Shown: positions 3,588 to 10,092 of the stretch, in pieces | How positions within the stretch are numbered: the first letter of the stretch is position 1 | Layout of the letters: each line of letters begins with the position of its first letter | Virus record (IMG/VR): IMGVR_UViG_3300019768_000006 | Span: 1-50,345 of that record | Direction: 5' to 3' (one strand) | DNA: 50,345 bases | From: a virus | Lineage: Duplodnaviria > Caudoviricetes | Translations under genes and position numbers: made by a program | Notes under the pieces: model-generated | Told to the model about the DNA's origin: nothing | Database searches by the model: none | What the model saw: only the letters and a program-made list of their open reading frames with translations

Positions 3588-3833
3588 TTATTTATTAAGC
3601 ATTTCTTGGAAAGCTTTTATAACATTGCTTTTTATATATTTTTCAATATATTGTTCTAATACATAGTATCCATGATTATCTTCACAATTACCACTACAAT
3701 CATGAAGTCCACATATTGCATTATAAAATCTTATACCATAAATTTTATCACCAGTTTCAATAATTTTACCATATTCTCCAGCTAAATTATGAGGTTCTTT
3801 TATAATTACTCTATCTCCTATTTTTAGGTCCAT
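3588..3833 (-). CDS. small KOW/SH3-like protein, C-terminal-motif family
   Basis: N-term LKIGDRV; C-term SNVIKAFQEML. Confidence 0.75.
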   Translation of the reverse strand: MDLKIGDRVIIKEPHNLAGEYGKIIETGDKIYGIRFYNAICGLHDCSGNCEDNHGYYVLEQYIEKYIKSNVIKAFQEMLNK

Positions 3834-3834
3834 A

Positions 3835-4041
3835 TTAGTTCTCCAATAGTTTTATGAAAGTTTGTATAATAGAATTGTAATTACCGAATTTATACTCGCT
3901 ATATCTTGCAATTTTATTTGTATCATCAAATTTAATTTTAACTAAAAAATTGTTAATATATCCAATAACTATTCCAGTTCTATTATATGAATCAGACCAT
4001 TCAATAGTTCCAATTACCTTATCACCTTTTTTAAATTTCAT
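3835..4041 (-). CDS. small KOW/SH3-like protein, C-terminal-motif family
   Basis: MKFKKGDKV; C-term NSIIQTFIKLL; GGAGG RBS. Confidence 0.8.
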   Translation of the reverse strand: MKFKKGDKVIGTIEWSDSYNRTGIVIGYINNFLVKIKFDDTNKIARYSEYKFGNYNSIIQTFIKLLEN

Positions 4042-4062
4042 AGTGTACCTCCATATGTAATC

Positions 4063-4097
4063 GAGGACTTAATTTCTAGCCAAGTCCTCAGAGAGCC
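4063..4097 (-). ncRNA. structured RNA motif, copy 1 (hairpin/pseudoknot)
   Basis: CGGCU-CUCU-GAGGACUU-GGCUAGAAAUU-AAGUCCUC; second copy at 4862-4896 has a different stem but the same loop. Confidence 0.6.
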
Positions 4098-4116
4098 GAA
4101 AGGAGGTATATTTATG

Positions 4117-4365
4117 TTAATTACAAAGTTGTCTAAATTTGTTGAGTATTTTATTTTCTTTAACTAAATTAAATCTTTCTTCATATATATTATATTTATT
4201 AGTATCTTGGTTTTCTAATCTTTTTACTGTTGGGTGTTGCGTTGTACCATTATTAAGGTAACTAGTCCAAAAACCTACTACTTCAAATTTATCTCCAGGT
4301 TTAAAATCGCCTTTTTTACAGTTTATTTCAACTATATCTCCGATTATAAATTTACATTTCTTCAT
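4117..4365 (-). CDS. small KOW/SH3-like protein, C-terminal-motif family
   Basis: KFIIGDIV; C-term NKILNKFRQL. Confidence 0.8.
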   Translation of the reverse strand: MKKCKFIIGDIVEINCKKGDFKPGDKFEVVGFWTSYLNNGTTQHPTVKRLENQDTNKYNIYEERFNLVKENKILNKFRQLCN

Positions 4366-4390
4366 GAGTCCTCCGAATAATCTTATGAGT

Positions 4391-4420
4391 TGAGCAGTTT
4401 CTTTGCTTGCTCAGGCGCAA
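4391..4420 (-). ncRNA. predicted H-type pseudoknot
   Basis: UUGC-GCC-UGAGCA-A-GCAA-AGAAAC-UGCUCA. Confidence 0.5.
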
Positions 4421-4557
4421 GGAGTGGGTCGTTATACAATAATCTGTTGGCTCGCATTTTCTTATAAGTTATTGTCATAAAGAAAACTTGAGGAAAGAAA
4501 TGACTTTGACCTTGCTAAAGGGTCTGGCTATTGGCTATCAAGCCTAGCCTAGCACAT

Positions 4558-4634
4558 TGGCTACGGAGGTGAGATTTGAACTCACAACAACTGACTTCAA
4601 AGGCCAGTGCTCCACACTTTTTAGCTACTCCGCA
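4558..4634 (-). tRNA. tRNA-Gln(UUG)
   Basis: Acceptor UGCGGAG/CUCCGUA, anticodon arm CUGGC-CUUUGAA-GUCAG, T-arm GUGAG-UUCAAAU-CUCAC, encoded GCCA. Confidence 0.9.
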
Positions 4635-4640
4635 ATATGT

Positions 4641-4682
4641 AACAACCTTTTTTAATTATGACAGAAAGGCTGCCTAAACTGC
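4641..4682 (-). ncRNA. predicted H-type pseudoknot
   Basis: GCAG-UUUA-GGCAGCCUUU-CUGU-CAUAAUUAAA-AAAGGUUGUU. Confidence 0.5.
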
Positions 4683-4687
4683 GCTCC

Positions 4688-4774
4688 TGGCACAGGCCCT
4701 GAGACTCGAACTCAGATTGGTTCTAGAGACCACGGTTTTGGAGACCGCTGCATTTCCATTTATGCTAGACCTAT
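4688..4774 (-). tRNA. tRNA-Trp(CCA) with unusually long variable region
   Basis: AUAGGUC/GGCCUGU acceptor, D-arm GCAU-AAAUGGAA-AUGC, GCGGU-CUCCAAA-ACCGU, 16-nt variable region, CUGAG-UUCGAGU-CUCAG, GCCA. Confidence 0.88.
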
Positions 4775-4780
4775 ATACGT

Positions 4781-4852
4781 AGGCAAGTGGAGGATTCGAA
4801 CCCCCGTAAGCATGTAGTCGACATACACGATTAACTCACCGTTATTCTTGCC
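4781..4852 (-). ncRNA. tRNA-like RNA or degenerate tRNA (nominal UCG anticodon)
   Basis: GGCAAG/CUUGCC acceptor, T-arm GGGGG-UUCGAAU-CCUCC, stem GUGUA-UGUCGAC-UACAU lacking U33; no encoded CCA. Confidence 0.6.
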
Positions 4853-4861
4853 ATATCAATT

Positions 4862-4896
4862 GTGGTTAATTTCTAGCCAACCACCGCTGAAAGCCG
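4862..4896 (-). ncRNA. structured RNA motif, copy 2
   Basis: CGGCU-UUCAGCG-GUGGUU-GGCUAGAAAUU-AACCAC. Confidence 0.6.
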
Positions 4897-4908
4897 ATGT
4901 TATTTGAC

Positions 4909-5032
4909 TGGTGAGATGTATAGGATTCGAACCTATATTGTCAGGTGTGCCGCCAATTACACCAAGCGGGCCGTAGCCCACTACTGGACTTGAACCAATT
5001 CCTCCCAACTGTTCCCATTAACTTAACATCTC
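4909..5032 (-). ncRNA. anticodon-less double tRNA-like RNA (two elbows, one CCA end)
   Basis: Two T-arms, two D-arms, two 7-bp acceptor stems (one closed by cUACGg, one ending ACCA), joined by a shared GUUGGG/CCUGAC stem. Confidence 0.8.
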
Positions 5033-5039
5033 ACGCCGC

Positions 5040-5096
5040 CCTAGTTTTGTTTACATGCTTTATAGTCTCAAGGAAACTAGGAAAAGTCCAGACTAT
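5040..5096 (-). ncRNA. predicted H-type pseudoknot
   Basis: AUAGUCU...AGACUAU (P1) interlocked with CCUAGUUU...AAACUAGG (P2). Confidence 0.6.
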
Positions 5097-5099
5097 CAT

Positions 5100-5176
5100 T
5101 GGTACTCGCCCAGGGTCTTGAACCCCGTACCTCTCGGATATAAGCCGAGTGCTCTAACCAGATGAGCTAGACGAGC
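5100..5176 (-). tRNA. tRNA-Ile(UAU)
   Basis: GCUCGUC/GGCGAGU, GCUC-AUCUGGUUA-GAGC, CUCGG-CUUAUAU-CCGAG, CGGGG-UUCAAGA-CCCUG, ACCA. Confidence 0.92.
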
Positions 5177-5352
5177 ATGAAGAGTTAAGTAAGCCTTTGA
5201 AAGTCTTGTTATCATTATTTTGCACCTATCTATATAAATAAGATAGTACCGCTCACATGTTACTCTTTTCAGTCTGCTGTTAATCTCAACATCTAATAAT
5301 TATTAGACCTTACTAGTGGCCACATATTGTCAGAAATATGATATGTAAAATT

Positions 5353-5383
5353 GGGTAAGCATTTATTAGCCCTTACCCGAGGC
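5353..5383 (-). ncRNA. predicted H-type pseudoknot
   Basis: GCC-UC-GGGUAAG-GGC-UAAUAAAUG-CUUACCC. Confidence 0.5.
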
Positions 5384-5390
5384 ATATGTA

Positions 5391-5738
5391 TTAATAATCT
5401 ATATATTCGCTACATTTTGTAATATCAATTTCTACATTTTCTTTATTTGGATAATTTATAGTTAAACTCAAATTACTTGAATAATAACCGTTTTGCTCAT
5501 CATAACAATGAATCGTATAACCATTAATTCTAAATCCAATACCTTCGACTTTTTCAAATTCTATTGTGTTGAATATAAGGTTTTCAAAACCTGTATCGTC
5601 CAGACTAGACCAGTCTGCATATACATGCTCACATCAATCTTGTTCGTGATAGTCTTCAATTTTTAAACCATTAGAAAAATAAAGTCCATTATTAATTCTA
5701 ACTGTTAATGGCCCATCTTGACCGTCATATAATAGCAT
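5391..5738 (-). CDS. candidate selenoprotein (115 aa, in-frame UGA at codon 35)
   Basis: GAAAGGA RBS + ATG 5738; MLLYDGQDGP...DYHEQD-TGA(5636-5634)-CEHVYADWSSLDD...CYDEQNGYYSSNL...EYIDY-TAA; SECIS-like hairpin just downstream of the UGA. Confidence 0.8.
5601..5617 (-). promoter_or_regulatory. bacterial SECIS-like hairpin
   Basis: CAGACU-GGUCU-AGUCUG; stem starts 16 nt and loop 22 nt after the UGA; the loop shares GGUCU with the E. coli fdhF SECIS loop. Confidence 0.7.
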
Positions 5739-5776
5739 ATTACATCCTTTCTCTAGTTTACTATGTATAAGGATGT

Positions 5777-5809
5777 AAGCCCTTATTACTCTACCCAGGG
5801 CTCAGGGGT
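5777..5809 (-). ncRNA. predicted H-type pseudoknot
   Basis: ACCC-CU-GAGCCCU-GGGU-AGAGUAAUA-AGGGCUU. Confidence 0.55.
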
Positions 5810-5816
5810 TATGTAA

Positions 5817-5933
5817 TGGAAAGCGTGTTGGGAGTCGAACCCAACTGCATAGTGATCAAATCCATACAACACTGACCGCAAGTACTTGTGCCTACTGCCT
5901 AGAATTTTTCAACATTTTCCTTTGTGTACGCTC
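5817..5933 (-). ncRNA. enlarged tRNA-like RNA with CCA end
   Basis: GAGCGU/ACGCUU acceptor + UCCA; GUUGGG-UUCGACU-CCCAAC T-arm; internal stem UGUAUGG/CUAUGCA; no canonical anticodon arm. Confidence 0.65.
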
Positions 5934-5987
5934 ACAGTTCTGAGCCAGCCCCGTAAGACCTGGGCCAGCTCGCTGATGATCTATTTT

Positions 5988-6167
5988 TTATTGTGTCTTG
6001 CTAACTTGAGAAGTTTTGTTAAGCGTAGTCTTTACAGCTTCAGGAGTTGCAGCAGCTTGTTGCTTTTTGATTTCTCTTGTTTTCGCAAGGTTGATACCAC
6101 CAATATAAATTTCATTTCTTCTGTTTCTTCCTCGTCTTGAGCGAGATTGTTTCTTAGTGTAAGTCAT
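5988..6167 (-). CDS. small basic protein
   Basis: AAGGAGG RBS before MTYTKKQSRSRRGRNRR; Arg/Lys-rich. Confidence 0.6.
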   Translation of the reverse strand: MTYTKKQSRSRRGRNRRNEIYIGGINLAKTREIKKQQAAATPEAVKTTLNKTSQVSKTQ

Positions 6168-6285
6168 GATAAGCCTCCTTAGCTTAATGAAGATGTTTAA
6201 TAACCTCATAAAACTCTAATATGCATATTAACATCTCGAAATGATGCACATTAAATTTATATATTATTTCTATAACTACCTCCGG

Positions 6286-7393: not shown

Positions 7394-7498
7394 AATATCC
7401 CTCCTCAAGGATTACATTGTTGCAATGTAAATTAGAGTAAAAGCAACTCCAATTGTTATTCCTAATATAAATAGTACAAATGTGATCATTTAGACCTC

Positions 7499-7804
7499 CT
7501 AAAAAATAAATCTTTGTTTATTTAATTTTACATTAAAATTAAATTTTAAATCTATAGATGATGCTACATATTGACAATTTACAATTGTACTTTTTAATTC
7601 ATTATAACCTTCTAATCCTGTTGAAATACTTGATCCAGATTCTTTAATTATAATAAAAATCCATTCATCTCTGTTAATTTTTTGATAAAAATAAATTAAG
7701 TTTTCATTCATAATTACATAAAATTTTTCATAATTTTCTAAAATGTCCATTTTTTGTTCTAATGTTAATTCTTTATTATGTTCATCATAATTTTTAATTA
7801 GCAT
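7499..7804 (-). CDS. hypothetical protein
   Basis: AGGAGG RBS before MLIKNYDE; very AT-rich. Confidence 0.65.
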   Translation of the reverse strand: MLIKNYDEHNKELTLEQKMDILENYEKFYVIMNENLIYFYQKINRDEWIFIIIKESGSSISTGLEGYNELKSTIVNCQYVASSIDLKFNFNVKLNKQRFIF

Positions 7805-7814
7805 AATAGACCTC

Positions 7815-8045
7815 CTAATGTCTAATAATACTTGCAGAGCCCTCATTGAGTTCTCTGATTATTTGCGGGAAAGCGTCCCACCATTCACAATTTTTTCTAT
7901 GTTTTACTTTAAGGCCTGTTGAACTGAACATATAACTAGTGTTCTTTTCAATCACACCATTACGTTCTATTTTAAATTCCTCGCCTAGCATTACGTTTAG
8001 CTTTCGTGCAAGACTTGGGGTCTCGTATTTGATCATCAATCTCAC
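7815..8045 (-). CDS. hypothetical protein
   Basis: ORF in an operon-like run; AAGGAG upstream. Confidence 0.55.
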   Translation of the reverse strand: MRLMIKYETPSLARKLNVMLGEEFKIERNGVIEKNTSYMFSSTGLKVKHRKNCEWWDAFPQIIRELNEGSASIIRH

Positions 8046-8439
8046 TCTCCTTAATAGATTGAACGATTGTTTTTCTTAACATAATAGTTAAAGCTTCACA
8101 AGCATCTTTGAGTTGTTCAATAGAACTCTCTGTAGTATATGAGAAGCTTTTTTCATTTAACTTTATCAGCTCAAAAGATTTATTATCTACTGAGCATTCT
8201 AACCATGAGTCTCTTTCAAAGTGATAGGCTTGTTTTATAAATAACACTCCCTCCCACTTTGCTTCATCTATTATAACACCTATATCAATCCATAATAAAG
8301 CCTCATTTAAGTGCTTATCTAAGGTCTCGGTGAGTTCATTTATTTTATCTTCAATAGATTTTTTATAGTTTCCATTGATATATTTTTTATCAAGCTTAGA
8401 ATATAAATCTTCAAGTTCATGAAAAATTTTCATTGCCAT
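7972..8439 (-). CDS. hypothetical protein
   Basis: 155-aa ORF, AAGGTGG RBS. Confidence 0.65.
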   Translation of the reverse strand: MAMKIFHELEDLYSKLDKKYINGNYKKSIEDKINELTETLDKHLNEALLWIDIGVIIDEAKWEGVLFIKQAYHFERDSWLECSVDNKSFELIKLNEKSFSYTTESSIEQLKDACEALTIMLRKTIVQSIKESEIDDQIRDPKSCTKAKRNARRGI

Positions 8440-8494
8440 TCCACCTTTTTATTTTTAAATTCATAAGTTGATAAGCTTTTTTATTATAGTCCGG

Positions 8495-8791
8495 TTATAA
8501 TTGTATTATATTCATAAACTTTCTTAATATTTTATTTTGATTTTTTTCACGGACTTCATAGTATTCTTCTAAAAAACAAATCATGTCACTTATAGTTCCA
8601 TATTTTATTCCTCTTGGCATCCAACTTTTTAAACTTTTAAAATATGGATAATAACAATATATTGTATTATCAACTTTAACAATCATTATATCATACCAAC
8701 CATTTTCATTTGGATCTTGTCCATCATAAATAGATGATCCATATCCTTTTGTTTTTACTTCATAGTTTGCCACAAAGTCCTTAGCGTCCAT
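8495..8791 (-). CDS. small protein, C-terminal-motif family
   Basis: GAGAGG RBS; C-term NKILRKFMNII. Confidence 0.75.
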   Translation of the reverse strand: MDAKDFVANYEVKTKGYGSSIYDGQDPNENGWYDIMIVKVDNTIYCYYPYFKSLKSWMPRGIKYGTISDMICFLEEYYEVREKNQNKILRKFMNIIQL

Positions 8792-8811
8792 TATACCTCT
8801 CCCCAGTTTTT

Positions 8812-8849
8812 AAAAAACCAGGGATCAGAATTAACTGATCAACCTGGTT
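8812..8849 (-). terminator. intrinsic terminator
   Basis: AACCAGG-UU-GAUCAG...CUGAUC-CCUGGUU followed by a U run, downstream of 8863..10092. Confidence 0.65.
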
Positions 8850-8862
8850 AATATTTAAATCA

Positions 8863-10092
8863 TTATCCTAAGATTTTAACAACATCTTCTTCTTGCATTA
8901 CAGGAGCAAGCAATTCGATAAGATGTTCTTTTGTTGAGAATGCATGTGCCAATCCAATTAAATCTATTAATTCTGAATCAAAATTCTCAGATGCAAAGAT
9001 AGGATTGTTATCTGCATTTTGACCAAGAATTGCACAAAGCTTGTAGACAACATCTGTGATGTTTTCATGATAAGCATCTTGAGCATCAGCAAATGTTTTA
9101 GGGAAATTAATATCTCTATCAATATCCTCATACTCAGGTTCAATTTCAGAACCAAATTTTTGCATACCTTCAGCTTGTAACTGAGATATATATTGAGAAG
9201 CTTGCTCTTCTGTGAATTGCATTAGATTAAGTTCATCAAGCTCAGGATTACCACTTCTTACTAGAAGCTTATTAATTAAATCTCGTTGACCTTGAGAAGC
9301 TCTATCTTTATTCCATCTGTAGAATACAGCTTGGTTTTTAGAGATAAACTCTGTACATTGTTGTTTAACAAGCTTATCAAGTGAGAAACTATCAGCATAC
9401 TCATCAATTTCTTTTTGAGTTGCTACCATATCATCTTGAAGAGATTTCAATACAGCTTCAGCATCCTTCTGAGCCTTCTGTAATTTCTTTAATCTCTTAG
9501 TATCATTTTCCATGATACAATCTTGTTGAAGATTAAGAATCTGGTTTACTGCTGAGTTGTTAAGAGTGATCTCTTTCTCAAGAGAATCTTTCTTATCAAG
9601 AATCTCAGCTGGAACTTCGTACAACTCAGATGAATCAATGTCTGGACACATCATCATTTTTGAGATGAAAGCAAGTTGCTTTTCTGAAGGGATATGAGCA
9701 AAATGTTTTTCATAGTAATCATCCATTTTCTGAATAATTGAAGATGCTTGAGTTACACTTAATTTATCTAAGAACTCATCATCTGGTTCATCCATTCTGC
9801 ATTTAACATATCTGCCTTTGACAGCTTCCTTTTGACCATCAGTAGCTGGGAAGAAATCTTCAAGGGCTTGAGTTTTCTTGATAATTTCTGATAAGTTATT
9901 CTGAGATAATAACTCATAGTTTTTAATAGGATCAACATTTTTTCTCTTACATACTTTCAAATAATATGCTTGAGATTTTTCAGAAGCGACACCAGCTTTA
10001 CGAGGTGCACTGGTCTGAGAAGTTTTCTCAGCTTTGGGAGCGTTCTTTTGTAAATCCTTAATAATTTGATTGTAAGTGTTCAAAGTTTTCAT
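8863..10092 (-). CDS. protein with four short helical repeats and a coiled coil
   Basis: 409 aa; repeats ASEKSQ/ATDGQ/PSEKQ/ASQGQ, each followed by an LS..Q(AS)..I-like segment; AAGGAG RBS. Confidence 0.8.
   Translation of the reverse strand: MKTLNTYNQIIKDLQKNAPKAEKTSQTSAPRKAGVASEKSQAYYLKVCKRKNVDPIKNYELLSQNNLSEIIKKTQALEDFFPATDGQKEAVKGRYVKCRMDEPDDEFLDKLSVTQASSIIQKMDDYYEKHFAHIPSEKQLAFISKMMMCPDIDSSELYEVPAEILDKKDSLEKEITLNNSAVNQILNLQQDCIMENDTKRLKKLQKAQKDAEAVLKSLQDDMVATQKEIDEYADSFSLDKLVKQQCTEFISKNQAVFYRWNKDRASQGQRDLINKLLVRSGNPELDELNLMQFTEEQASQYISQLQAEGMQKFGSEIEPEYEDIDRDINFPKTFADAQDAYHENITDVVYKLCAILGQNADNNPIFASENFDSELIDLIGLAHAFSTKEHLIELLAPVMQEEDVVKILG

Follow-up and report, generated by a model that had tools for sequence, protein, structure and literature searches.

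The tRNA island and its hairpins

The 50,345-base IMG/VR virus record IMGVR_UViG_3300019768_000006 (Duplodnaviria; Caudoviricetes), analysed at full length and referred to here as the window, is rated 100% complete, has a G+C content of 33% and carries minus-strand genes over roughly 1–12.8 kb and 34.4–50.3 kb. The subject of this study is a minus-strand tRNA island in this phage genome, in which an initial annotation, made from the sequence alone, had described seven H-type pseudoknots as spacers (Table 1). ARAGORN and Rfam (at the gathering score) each identify exactly three tRNAs, for Ile, Trp and Gln, both in the island and in the whole window, and all three encode their CCA end. The variable arm of tRNA-Trp(CCA), about 13 nucleotides (nt) in length, gives the molecule a type-II shape, which is unusual for tRNA-Trp.

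Three further elements in the island (X1–X3) have canonical T arms and acceptor strands, yet contain inserts or degenerate D and anticodon arms. In its intron mode, ARAGORN reports X1 as a tRNA-Ala(UGC) with a 58-nt insert; default ARAGORN and Rfam make no call. X2 is called by ARAGORN only at the 80% threshold (ps80) or in intron mode, and has a partial Rfam tRNA match of 18.7 bits, which is under the gathering score. It also holds a second T-arm-like hairpin. The corresponding Rfam match in X3 resembles the 3′ end of a tmRNA or tRNA and scores 10.9 bits. Decay of former tRNAs could account for these elements, or they could be decoys or tRNAs carrying inserts.

A hairpin (P2) exists at every one of the seven sites, with a stem of 6–10 base pairs (bp) and an estimated free energy of −5.6 to −11 kcal/mol, and the sequences at these positions are as first described. 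A second helix (P1) of 3–7 bp, between the 5′ flank and the hairpin loop, can be drawn at all seven sites; it comprises only 3–4 bp at six of them, a shortness that the initial annotation had already remarked upon for several. The G-U pairs in the stems of sites 1, 5 and 7 pair solely on the transcribed strand and would be mismatches on the other, which fits a structure formed by the transcript. As reported, a candidate selenoprotein gene, an open reading frame (ORF) at 5738–5391 with one in-frame TGA, is flanked by sites 1 and 2. Four sites had been said to begin 3–12 nt after a CCA end. Sites 1, 3, 4 and 5 do start 7, 3, 12 and 5 nt after one, respectively, but only those at 5100 and 4688 are the ends of accepted tRNAs; the other two, at 5817 and 4909, are the ends of the tRNA-like sequences X1 and X2, which are intron-mode or 80%-threshold calls only. 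A segment outside the earlier list, just 3′ of tRNA-Gln (4513–4557, minus strand), contains repeated GGCU/AGCC motifs in nested hairpins, with a minimum free energy (MFE) of −17.3 kcal/mol and z = −0.73.

Table 1. Features of the tRNA island in window coordinates. P1, flank-to-loop helix; P2, hairpin stem; SD, Shine–Dalgarno sequence; aa, amino acids; the slash in AUAU/GG marks the junction.
Feature	Position	Strand	Source
tRNA-Ile(UAU), CCA encoded	5100..5176	−	ARAGORN, Rfam
tRNA-Trp(CCA), 87 nt, long variable arm, CCA encoded	4688..4774	−	ARAGORN, Rfam
tRNA-Gln(UUG), CCA encoded	4558..4634	−	ARAGORN, Rfam
X1, tRNA-like 3′ half (T arm, acceptor 3′ strand, CCA), 5′ partner ambiguous	5817..5975	−	ARAGORN intron mode
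X2, tRNA-like, 7-bp acceptor stem, canonical T arm, CCA, about 50 extra nt	4909..5032	−	ARAGORN ps80/intron mode
X3, low-scoring tRNA-like, Val(GAC) at ps80 only, 5′ of tRNA-Trp	4781..4852	−	ARAGORN
ORF, 115 codons, one in-frame TGA at 5636–5634, between sites 1 and 2	5391..5738	−	ORF list
Site 1, GC-rich P2 of 6–8 bp, 13-nt loop, possible 4-bp P1 (ACCC/GGGU)	5777..5809	−	Folding
Site 2, 7-bp hairpin, 12-nt loop, possible 3-bp P1 (GCC/GGC)	5353..5383	−	Folding
Site 3, interlocking AU-rich helices of 7 and 8–9 bp, ends 7 nt before X2	5040..5096	−	Folding
Site 4, leader module copy: UCGGCU flank, 6-bp stem, GGCUAGAAAUU loop, AUAU/GG, ends 9 nt before X3	4851..4897	−	Covariance model
Site 5, 8–10 bp hairpin with G-U pairs, 14-nt A-rich loop, possible 4-bp P1, ends 6 nt before tRNA-Gln	4641..4682	−	Folding
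Site 6, weak 6-bp hairpin within possible 31-codon ORF, upstream of 82-aa gene	4391..4420	−	Folding
Site 7, second leader module copy, 8-bp stem, same loop, ends 10 nt before SD of 68-aa gene	4051..4099	−	Covariance model
Outer 7-bp anti-SD/SD helix (UACCUCC/GGAGGUA) enclosing site 7	4046..4108	−	MFE fold
Helix of about 10 bp (9 in MFE fold), anti-SD with SD region of ORF starting at 5738, directly 3′ of site 1	5740..5778	−	MFE fold

A leader module shared with a Paenibacillus prophage

The seven sites differ in their relations to one another. Strong hairpins with GG(C/G/U)UA-type loops were found at four places in a scan of the genome, namely sites 1, 2, 4 and 7, all of them in the island and on the minus strand. 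A single family of seven sites, or of these four, was nevertheless rejected, because the best MAFFT alignment of sites 1 and 2 has a shifted register (by our own count, about 22 of 27 positions) and a covariance model of the site 4/7 type (R2) finds just sites 4 and 7. In the shifted register, the P1 segment of site 2 corresponds to the main stem of site 1, and the two sites are sequence repeats that form non-homologous hairpins. A degenerate direct repeat of their sequence is present at 5320–5300, and a search with the repeat pattern gave three matches in unrelated genomes (about the chance expectation; not inspected) and none in viral contigs. When model R2 was run over the whole genome with filters off, it scored 54.9 bits at site 4 and 48.5 bits at site 7, the next match having E = 0.19. 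Sites 4 and 7 are true paralogues. Sites 3, 5 and 6 are idiosyncratic.

The module common to sites 4 and 7 is 47 nt long: a 5′ flank (UCGGCUYUC) is followed by a stem whose 15-nt loop region is identical in both copies, and the 3′ segment ends in AUAU/GG. The two stems differ at three positions, every one of which is compensated, such that the stem is kept by compensatory change around an invariant loop and flank. The module is absent from Rfam, and the site 4 copy has no match in INPHARED. A sigma-70 promoter was considered for the module and rejected: the hexamers are poor and differ in spacing by 3 nt, the stem changes are compensatory, and the sequence was not flagged by a promoter scan.

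A pattern search of 185,579 species genomes yielded 16 matches, and of IMG/VR seven, both near a rough estimate of chance, with one locus standing out. This is a prophage of Paenibacillus nicotianae, which appears as L189 in the genome collection and as L035, a provirus, in IMG/VR. Its copy of the module shares the flank and the AUAU/GG junction with the window copies; the loop is also the same apart from one extra A, and the 8-bp stem is a third, distinct one. It lies 7 nt upstream of a tRNA-Ser(GCU), the GG of the junction being nucleotides 1–2 of the tRNA. A covariance model built from the two window copies scores the prophage copy at 29.5 bits (E = 7e-5 in 213 kb), and no protein shared by the window phage and the prophage was detectable in the 4 kb flanking the prophage copy on each side. 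Covariation across phages had been proposed as a check on the pseudoknots. In the three-copy alignment, itself fitted to the model, 17 of 17 P2 cells are paired and three of six pairs change on both sides, compared with 33–53% pairing in slid controls; RNAalifold recovers the same stem and adds two loop-closing G-U pairs. P2 thus passes this check in the module, but the four pairs of P1 (GGCU:GGCU; two G-C and two G-U) never vary, and they compete with the two loop-closing G-U pairs. The invariance of P1 is neutral evidence, which says nothing for or against this helix.

Further searches returned the same locus. Covariance-model searches of 24 and 151 Paenibacillaceae genomes detected the same prophage only, with none in the other 23 and 149; an extra match at the end of an ORF was judged to be due to chance. 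The exact 15-mer of the loop has 119 matches in IMG/VR, almost all in coding-like contexts. A second pattern search for the module gave at least 133 matches, and among those listed, 8-bp stems occur only in the prophage and in one match within a 442-aa ORF, which was also attributed to chance. The wider prophage stretch matches INPHARED only over 31 nt inside tRNA-Ser, in one Salmonella phage (two records). Read by eye, the module and tRNA-Ser of the prophage (L189, 2985–3330, plus strand) have a 164-aa ORF on one side and small late-region genes on the other; a hairpin that resembles a terminator and has a T run comes after them. The leader upstream contains a CUAGCCGA segment that is complementary, again by eye, to the module flank and also to the module loop.

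The module could be a previously undescribed phage RNA motif that moves between unrelated Firmicute phages and acts as a recognition site controlling the 5′ maturation or unmasking of the downstream unit, although we regard this as rather doubtful. Its parts would be the invariant UCGGCU flank, the covarying stem, the invariant GGCUAGAAAUU loop and the AUAU/GG located 7–10 nt later, placed immediately 5′ of tRNAs, tRNA-like RNAs or ribosome-binding sites. The flank-to-loop pairing noted in the initial annotation (GGCU:GGCU, invariant) may lock the whole structure. As a recognition site, the module would offer a handle on how a phage coordinates the maturation of its own tRNAs with neighbouring small genes, a matter that is, to our knowledge, poorly understood outside T4.

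It is unlikely that the module, and perhaps site 2, is an operator at which a trans-acting RNA-binding factor of the phage or host reads the invariant loop and flank, and thereby controls maturation, antitermination or translation of the following unit. Such an operator would account for stems that covary around 15 invariant loop nucleotides and an invariant UCGGCU flank in three copies from two otherwise unrelated phages, which share no proteins near the module, and for the constant placement of the module 7–10 nt before a functional 5′ segment. The gene for a 58-aa arginine-rich protein just upstream of the island could also be accommodated. However, a candidate binding protein was not found, the 58-aa protein being without a family match, nor was a protein common to both phages; moreover, the known copies number three, and recent horizontal transfer of the module would explain its invariance equally well.

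Predicted masking of ribosome-binding sites

Two of the hairpins adjoin helices in which an anti-SD segment pairs with the SD of the next gene. The fold of the site 7 context has an MFE of −22.9 kcal/mol (z = −3.80), is equalled in stability by one of 200 shuffles and has the SD of the 68-aa gene paired. For site 1 together with its adjoining helix, the MFE is −20.5 kcal/mol (z = −1.87), with 10 of 200 shuffles as stable. In these predicted folds, sites 7 and 1 are coupled to helices that would sequester the ribosome-binding sites of the next genes. Anti-SD pairing better than chance is accordingly seen at site 7 and beside site 1, and is not seen in the context of site 6 (z = +0.78). An Rfam match to ROSE_2 falls on the opposite strand at 5960–6027 and scores 18.4 bits against a gathering score of 65. 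The prophage copy has a comparable predicted outer helix, between the leader and nucleotides 1–5 of tRNA-Ser.

Pseudoknot topology in shuffled and genomic sequence

The recurrence of the H-type topology had been put forward as what unites the sites. Two interlocked helices with sterically possible loops are found at all seven, and likewise in shuffled sequence. With a second stem (S2) of ≥6 bp and a first stem (S1) of ≥3 bp, 23 such arrangements are counted in the island. The 100 dinucleotide shuffles average 22.7, and 47 of them have at least 23; 150 windows taken from the transcribed strand of this genome average 24.4, and 119 have at least 23. The topology is therefore not special to the island. 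When an A-rich third loop (L3) and a second loop (L2) of ≤1 nt are required as well, the island has 17, compared with 10.0 in shuffles (0/100 reach it) and a mean of 14.1 in genome windows (29/150 reach it).

Longer helices give a less uniform picture. Interlocked Watson–Crick helices of ≥7/7 bp occur twice in the island (site 3 and 4486–4436), compared with 0.07 in shuffles (1/300 reach two). At ≥6/6 bp there are four island loci, a number matched or exceeded in 32 of 243 real windows, mostly other AT-rich early regions or windows overlapping the island itself. The second of the longer pairs, at 4436–4486 on the minus strand, comprises two interlocked 7-bp AU-rich helices, is absent from the earlier list and overlaps the start of a possible 31-codon ORF. 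Stable combinations of a hairpin with P1 (estimated energy ≤ −5) number six in the island, compared with a mean of 1.08, and one of 150 windows reaches six; this excess is dominated by the stability of P2.

Energy estimates were made in the manner of pknotsRG, by summing the stacking of both helices with assumed penalties of 9 kcal/mol for initiation and 0.3 per unpaired base. On this estimate the pseudoknot beats the nested minimum-energy fold in 0/7 sites, with a tie at site 1. A second stacking calculation places the pseudoknot at site 1 about 2 kcal/mol ahead of the hairpin and those at the other sites behind. Site 3 is the sole site with a long P1, and even there the nested fold is slightly better. 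Relative to dinucleotide shuffles, the spacer folds have z-scores of −0.36, −1.07, −0.16, −1.23 and −0.75 for sites 1 to 5, respectively, alongside the value given above for the site 6 context.

Complementarity between flank and loop was assessed by keeping P2 and replacing the 5′ flank with random genomic 14–16-mers, which gave p = 0.05–0.19 across the seven sites. An unbiased version, applied to 19 island hairpins outside the tRNAs (some of them overlapping), gave a Fisher p of 0.011 against the random-flank null, with p = 0.02 for site 3 and p = 0.105 for site 5. Values of p<0.1 were obtained for 37% of these 19 hairpins, compared with 10% of 250 transcribed minus-strand hairpins elsewhere (Mann–Whitney p = 0.0017). 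When the composition of each flank was preserved, the seven pre-selected sites gave p values of 0.09–0.45 each, or about 0.07 when combined by hand. Since this null weakens the signal, most of it probably stems from G+C-richer flanks lying beside G+C-rich loop starts. A weak residual preference for flank-to-loop pairing may exist in the island. Covariation for both helices was not found, the support in the module and its prophage copy being confined to P2, and the P1 stems of the seven sites are not convincing.

These comparisons bear on whether most sites, at least 3, 5 and 6, are incidental and functionless, being by-products of G+C-richer spacers or decayed tRNA fragments whose shared topology arose from the selection of complementary flanks. 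We consider this improbable. It would explain why the count of H-type arrangements equals that of shuffles and the rest of the genome, why the spacer folds of sites 1–6 are insignificant, why the own-composition null leaves p values as high as those above and why 32 of 243 real windows match the density of interlocked helices; the three degenerate tRNA-like elements in the island also suit a history of decay. It does not explain sites 4 and 7, which are clearly selected in view of their compensatory pairs and prophage homologue, nor the better P1 scores of the island relative to the 250 hairpins elsewhere, nor its excess of ≥7/7 bp interlocked helices over shuffles.

Proposed resistance to RNase J

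In the model of the initial annotation, H-type pseudoknots with the A-rich L3 docked on P1 cap the 5′ ends created by tRNA processing and stall RNase J, as exoribonuclease-resistant RNAs (xrRNAs) do. Such xrRNAs are defined by a three-way junction with pseudoknots that ring the 5′ end, thermodynamic stability alone confers no exonuclease resistance, and a flaviviral xrRNA can stop RNase J1 in vitro (PMC5760640). This last point is in favour of pseudoknot caps, together with the presence of a drawable P1 and plausible loops at the seven sites (a first loop of 1–4 nt, and in sites 1, 2 and 5 an L2 of 0 and an L3 of 9–10 nt), the enrichment of P1 complementarity over the random-flank null and one apparent compensatory difference, CCC/GGG in site 1 against GCC/GGC in site 2. 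The argument from compensation is undermined because the best register of sites 1 and 2 makes their hairpins non-homologous.

The architecture that defines xrRNAs is absent, however, each site being a single hairpin with at most a 3–7 bp flank-to-loop helix and having neither a three-way junction nor a ring. A P1 of 3–4 bp at the 5′ edge would be the first helix that a 5′ exonuclease meets and unwinds. The pseudoknot is energetically unfavoured in six or seven of the seven sites, its P1 is near chance, and in the module P1 is invariant and faces the competing G-U pairs described above. A scan of 3800–6200 against Rfam 15 (E ≤10) returned no xrRNA or pseudoknot family.

The supply of 5′ ends is a further difficulty. 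In B. subtilis, exonucleases such as RNase PH are described as trimming the 3′ end of tRNA precursors that encode CCA, whereas RNase Z cuts those that lack it (PMC8097732). Because the three accepted tRNAs of the island all encode CCA, they would escape RNase Z, and no new 5′ end is expected just after the CCA, on the presumption of a Bacillus-like host. Three of the sites, moreover, precede tRNAs, whose 5′ ends are processed by RNase P anyway. Pseudoknot caps are hence very unlikely. Had the proposal been correct, viral xrRNAs would have gained their first counterpart in bacteria or phages, a claim that the evidence does not support.

Possible roles of the stem-loops

The explanation that we tentatively prefer, with a probability a little short of even, is that the seven sites are a mixed set of plain leader and spacer stem-loops that insulate processing units, protect RNA ends and gate translation at two genes. 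The island would be expressed as one minus-strand transcription unit, containing the three tRNAs, the three tRNA-like elements and several small genes, with stem-loops in its spacers and leaders that work as plain hairpins and not as pseudoknot roadblocks. The hairpins would mark and insulate the processing units of the polycistronic RNA, and could shield RNA ends produced by endonucleolytic cleavage, in the manner of ordinary 5′- or 3′-terminal stem-loops. At two protein-coding units they may gate translation through the anti-SD helices, and the invariant loop and flank of the site 4/7 module probably form a surface that a factor of the host or phage recognises. This preference rests on the P2 covariation in the module, the prophage copy, the predicted SD sequestration, the G-U pairs confined to the transcribed strand and the GG(C/G)UA loops found only in the island.

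Several results weigh against a set of plain stem-loops. Six of the seven spacer folds are no stabler than dinucleotide shuffles, the site 7 context alone being unusual, and the hairpins of sites 3, 5 and 6 may therefore be functionless. The flank-to-loop complementarity of the island, which exceeds the random-flank null, is not predicted by a model of pure hairpins. The module is known in three copies from two genomes, and the outer helix in the prophage is statistically ordinary (z = −0.37).

The initial annotation had also offered processing or translation signals as a fallback, and these fit better than xrRNAs, judging from the predicted SD helices at sites 7 and 1 and from the positions of sites 3, 4 and 5, which end 6–9 nt before a tRNA or tRNA-like element (the prophage hairpin ends 7 nt before its tRNA). 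Taken as a whole, its observation is partly confirmed and its interpretation partly supported. The remainder is modest but real: a phage tRNA island composed of processing units, each with a hairpin in front, two small genes whose ribosome-binding sites are predicted to be masked, and one type of hairpin that is a conserved leader module, not in Rfam and common to an unrelated prophage.

Genome setting and neighbouring genes

The host of the window phage is likely Firmicute-like, because the window has strong GGAGG ribosome-binding sites and encodes a DnaE-type polymerase about 34–37% identical to those of phages of Geobacillus and Bacillus. The stretch is present in eight DNA runs from microbial-mat metagenomes, four of which were used in a check for variants. 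High-identity pieces in these four runs show no alternative letters relative to the phage and zero variants at all seven sites, so that microdiversity provides no test of the stems. The only differences listed, three changed letters at 5622–5628 and small insertions at 5434–5448, come from single low-depth, lower-identity contigs and fall within the TGA-containing ORF, outside the seven sites.

Scans of IMG/VR and metagenome contigs anchored on proteins (the radical-SAM neighbour, a 432-aa gene and DnaE) found relatives of ≤44% identity or none, and the sole blastn match to cultured phages is tRNA-Ile. In one distant relative (L009), the radical-SAM neighbour is 40% identical and an Ile-Gln-Trp island is syntenic, with spacers that cannot be aligned to those of the window. 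The order in that island (7400–9200, plus strand) is Ile(UAU), Gln, Trp, Ile, Leu, Leu, Gln. Read by eye, its spacers are 100–400 nt long and G+C-rich, and it contains a 23-nt repeat of its own in three copies, one of which ends 6 nt 5′ of tRNA-Trp, and a tRNA-like element missed by ARAGORN.

Read through its TGA, the ORF between sites 1 and 2 matches DUF7448 weakly, across the TGA itself (E = 0.0054, under the Pfam cut-off). A hairpin of 6–7 bp with a G/U-rich loop lies 16 nt 3′ of the TGA (5617–5601); it looks like a selenocysteine insertion sequence, and its fold is not unusual (z = −0.77). Immediately 5′ of the island, a gene at 5988–6164 (minus strand) encodes the 58-aa protein, which has an arginine-rich N-terminus and no Pfam, PHROG or Atlas relatives. 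At the other end, 3588–4365 (minus strand) carries three tandem small genes (81, 68 and 82 aa) with common N-terminal K-x-GD-x-V motifs. Direct DNA repeats spaced about 270–285 bp apart in this segment point to tandem duplication of the small genes.

Comparison with known systems

The likeness of the sites to the flaviviral and plant-virus xrRNAs lies in the proposed placement upstream of an RNA to be protected and in the pseudoknot that was invoked. The viral elements need a three-way junction, or a stem-loop plus pseudoknots, ringing the 5′ end, whereas the window sites are 30–57 nt long, with one hairpin, a P1 of mostly 3–4 bp, no ring and no Rfam match.

Hairpins of the stabiliser type are common in polycistronic phage and tRNA operons, and stem-loops at RNA termini reportedly stabilise mRNA, established examples being a 5′ stem-loop in the B. 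subtilis aprE leader and 5′-terminal ones in E. coli. The island resembles such terminal and intercistronic stabilisers (ompA and papA in E. coli; the aprE leader) in having simple stable hairpins at or near putative RNA ends. It differs in that several of its hairpins precede tRNAs and not mRNAs and two are nested in predicted SD-sequestering helices; one type, in addition, has a conserved 11-nt loop that stabilisers do not need. The pairing of an anti-SD with a ribosome-binding site, predicted over 7 bp at site 7 and about 10 bp beside site 1, recalls SD-sequestering leaders such as translational operators and thermometers, although the window sites match no Rfam family above the gathering score.

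Lambda-type boxB/nut sites and other operator hairpins resemble the module in combining a variable stem with an invariant loop, in recurring within a single early transcription unit and in having a small arginine-rich protein encoded nearby. The loop of the window module, at 11–12 nt, contrasts with the GNRA-like pentaloop of boxB; no boxA and no homology to N protein were found, and the copies of the module stand directly before a tRNA or an SD sequence.

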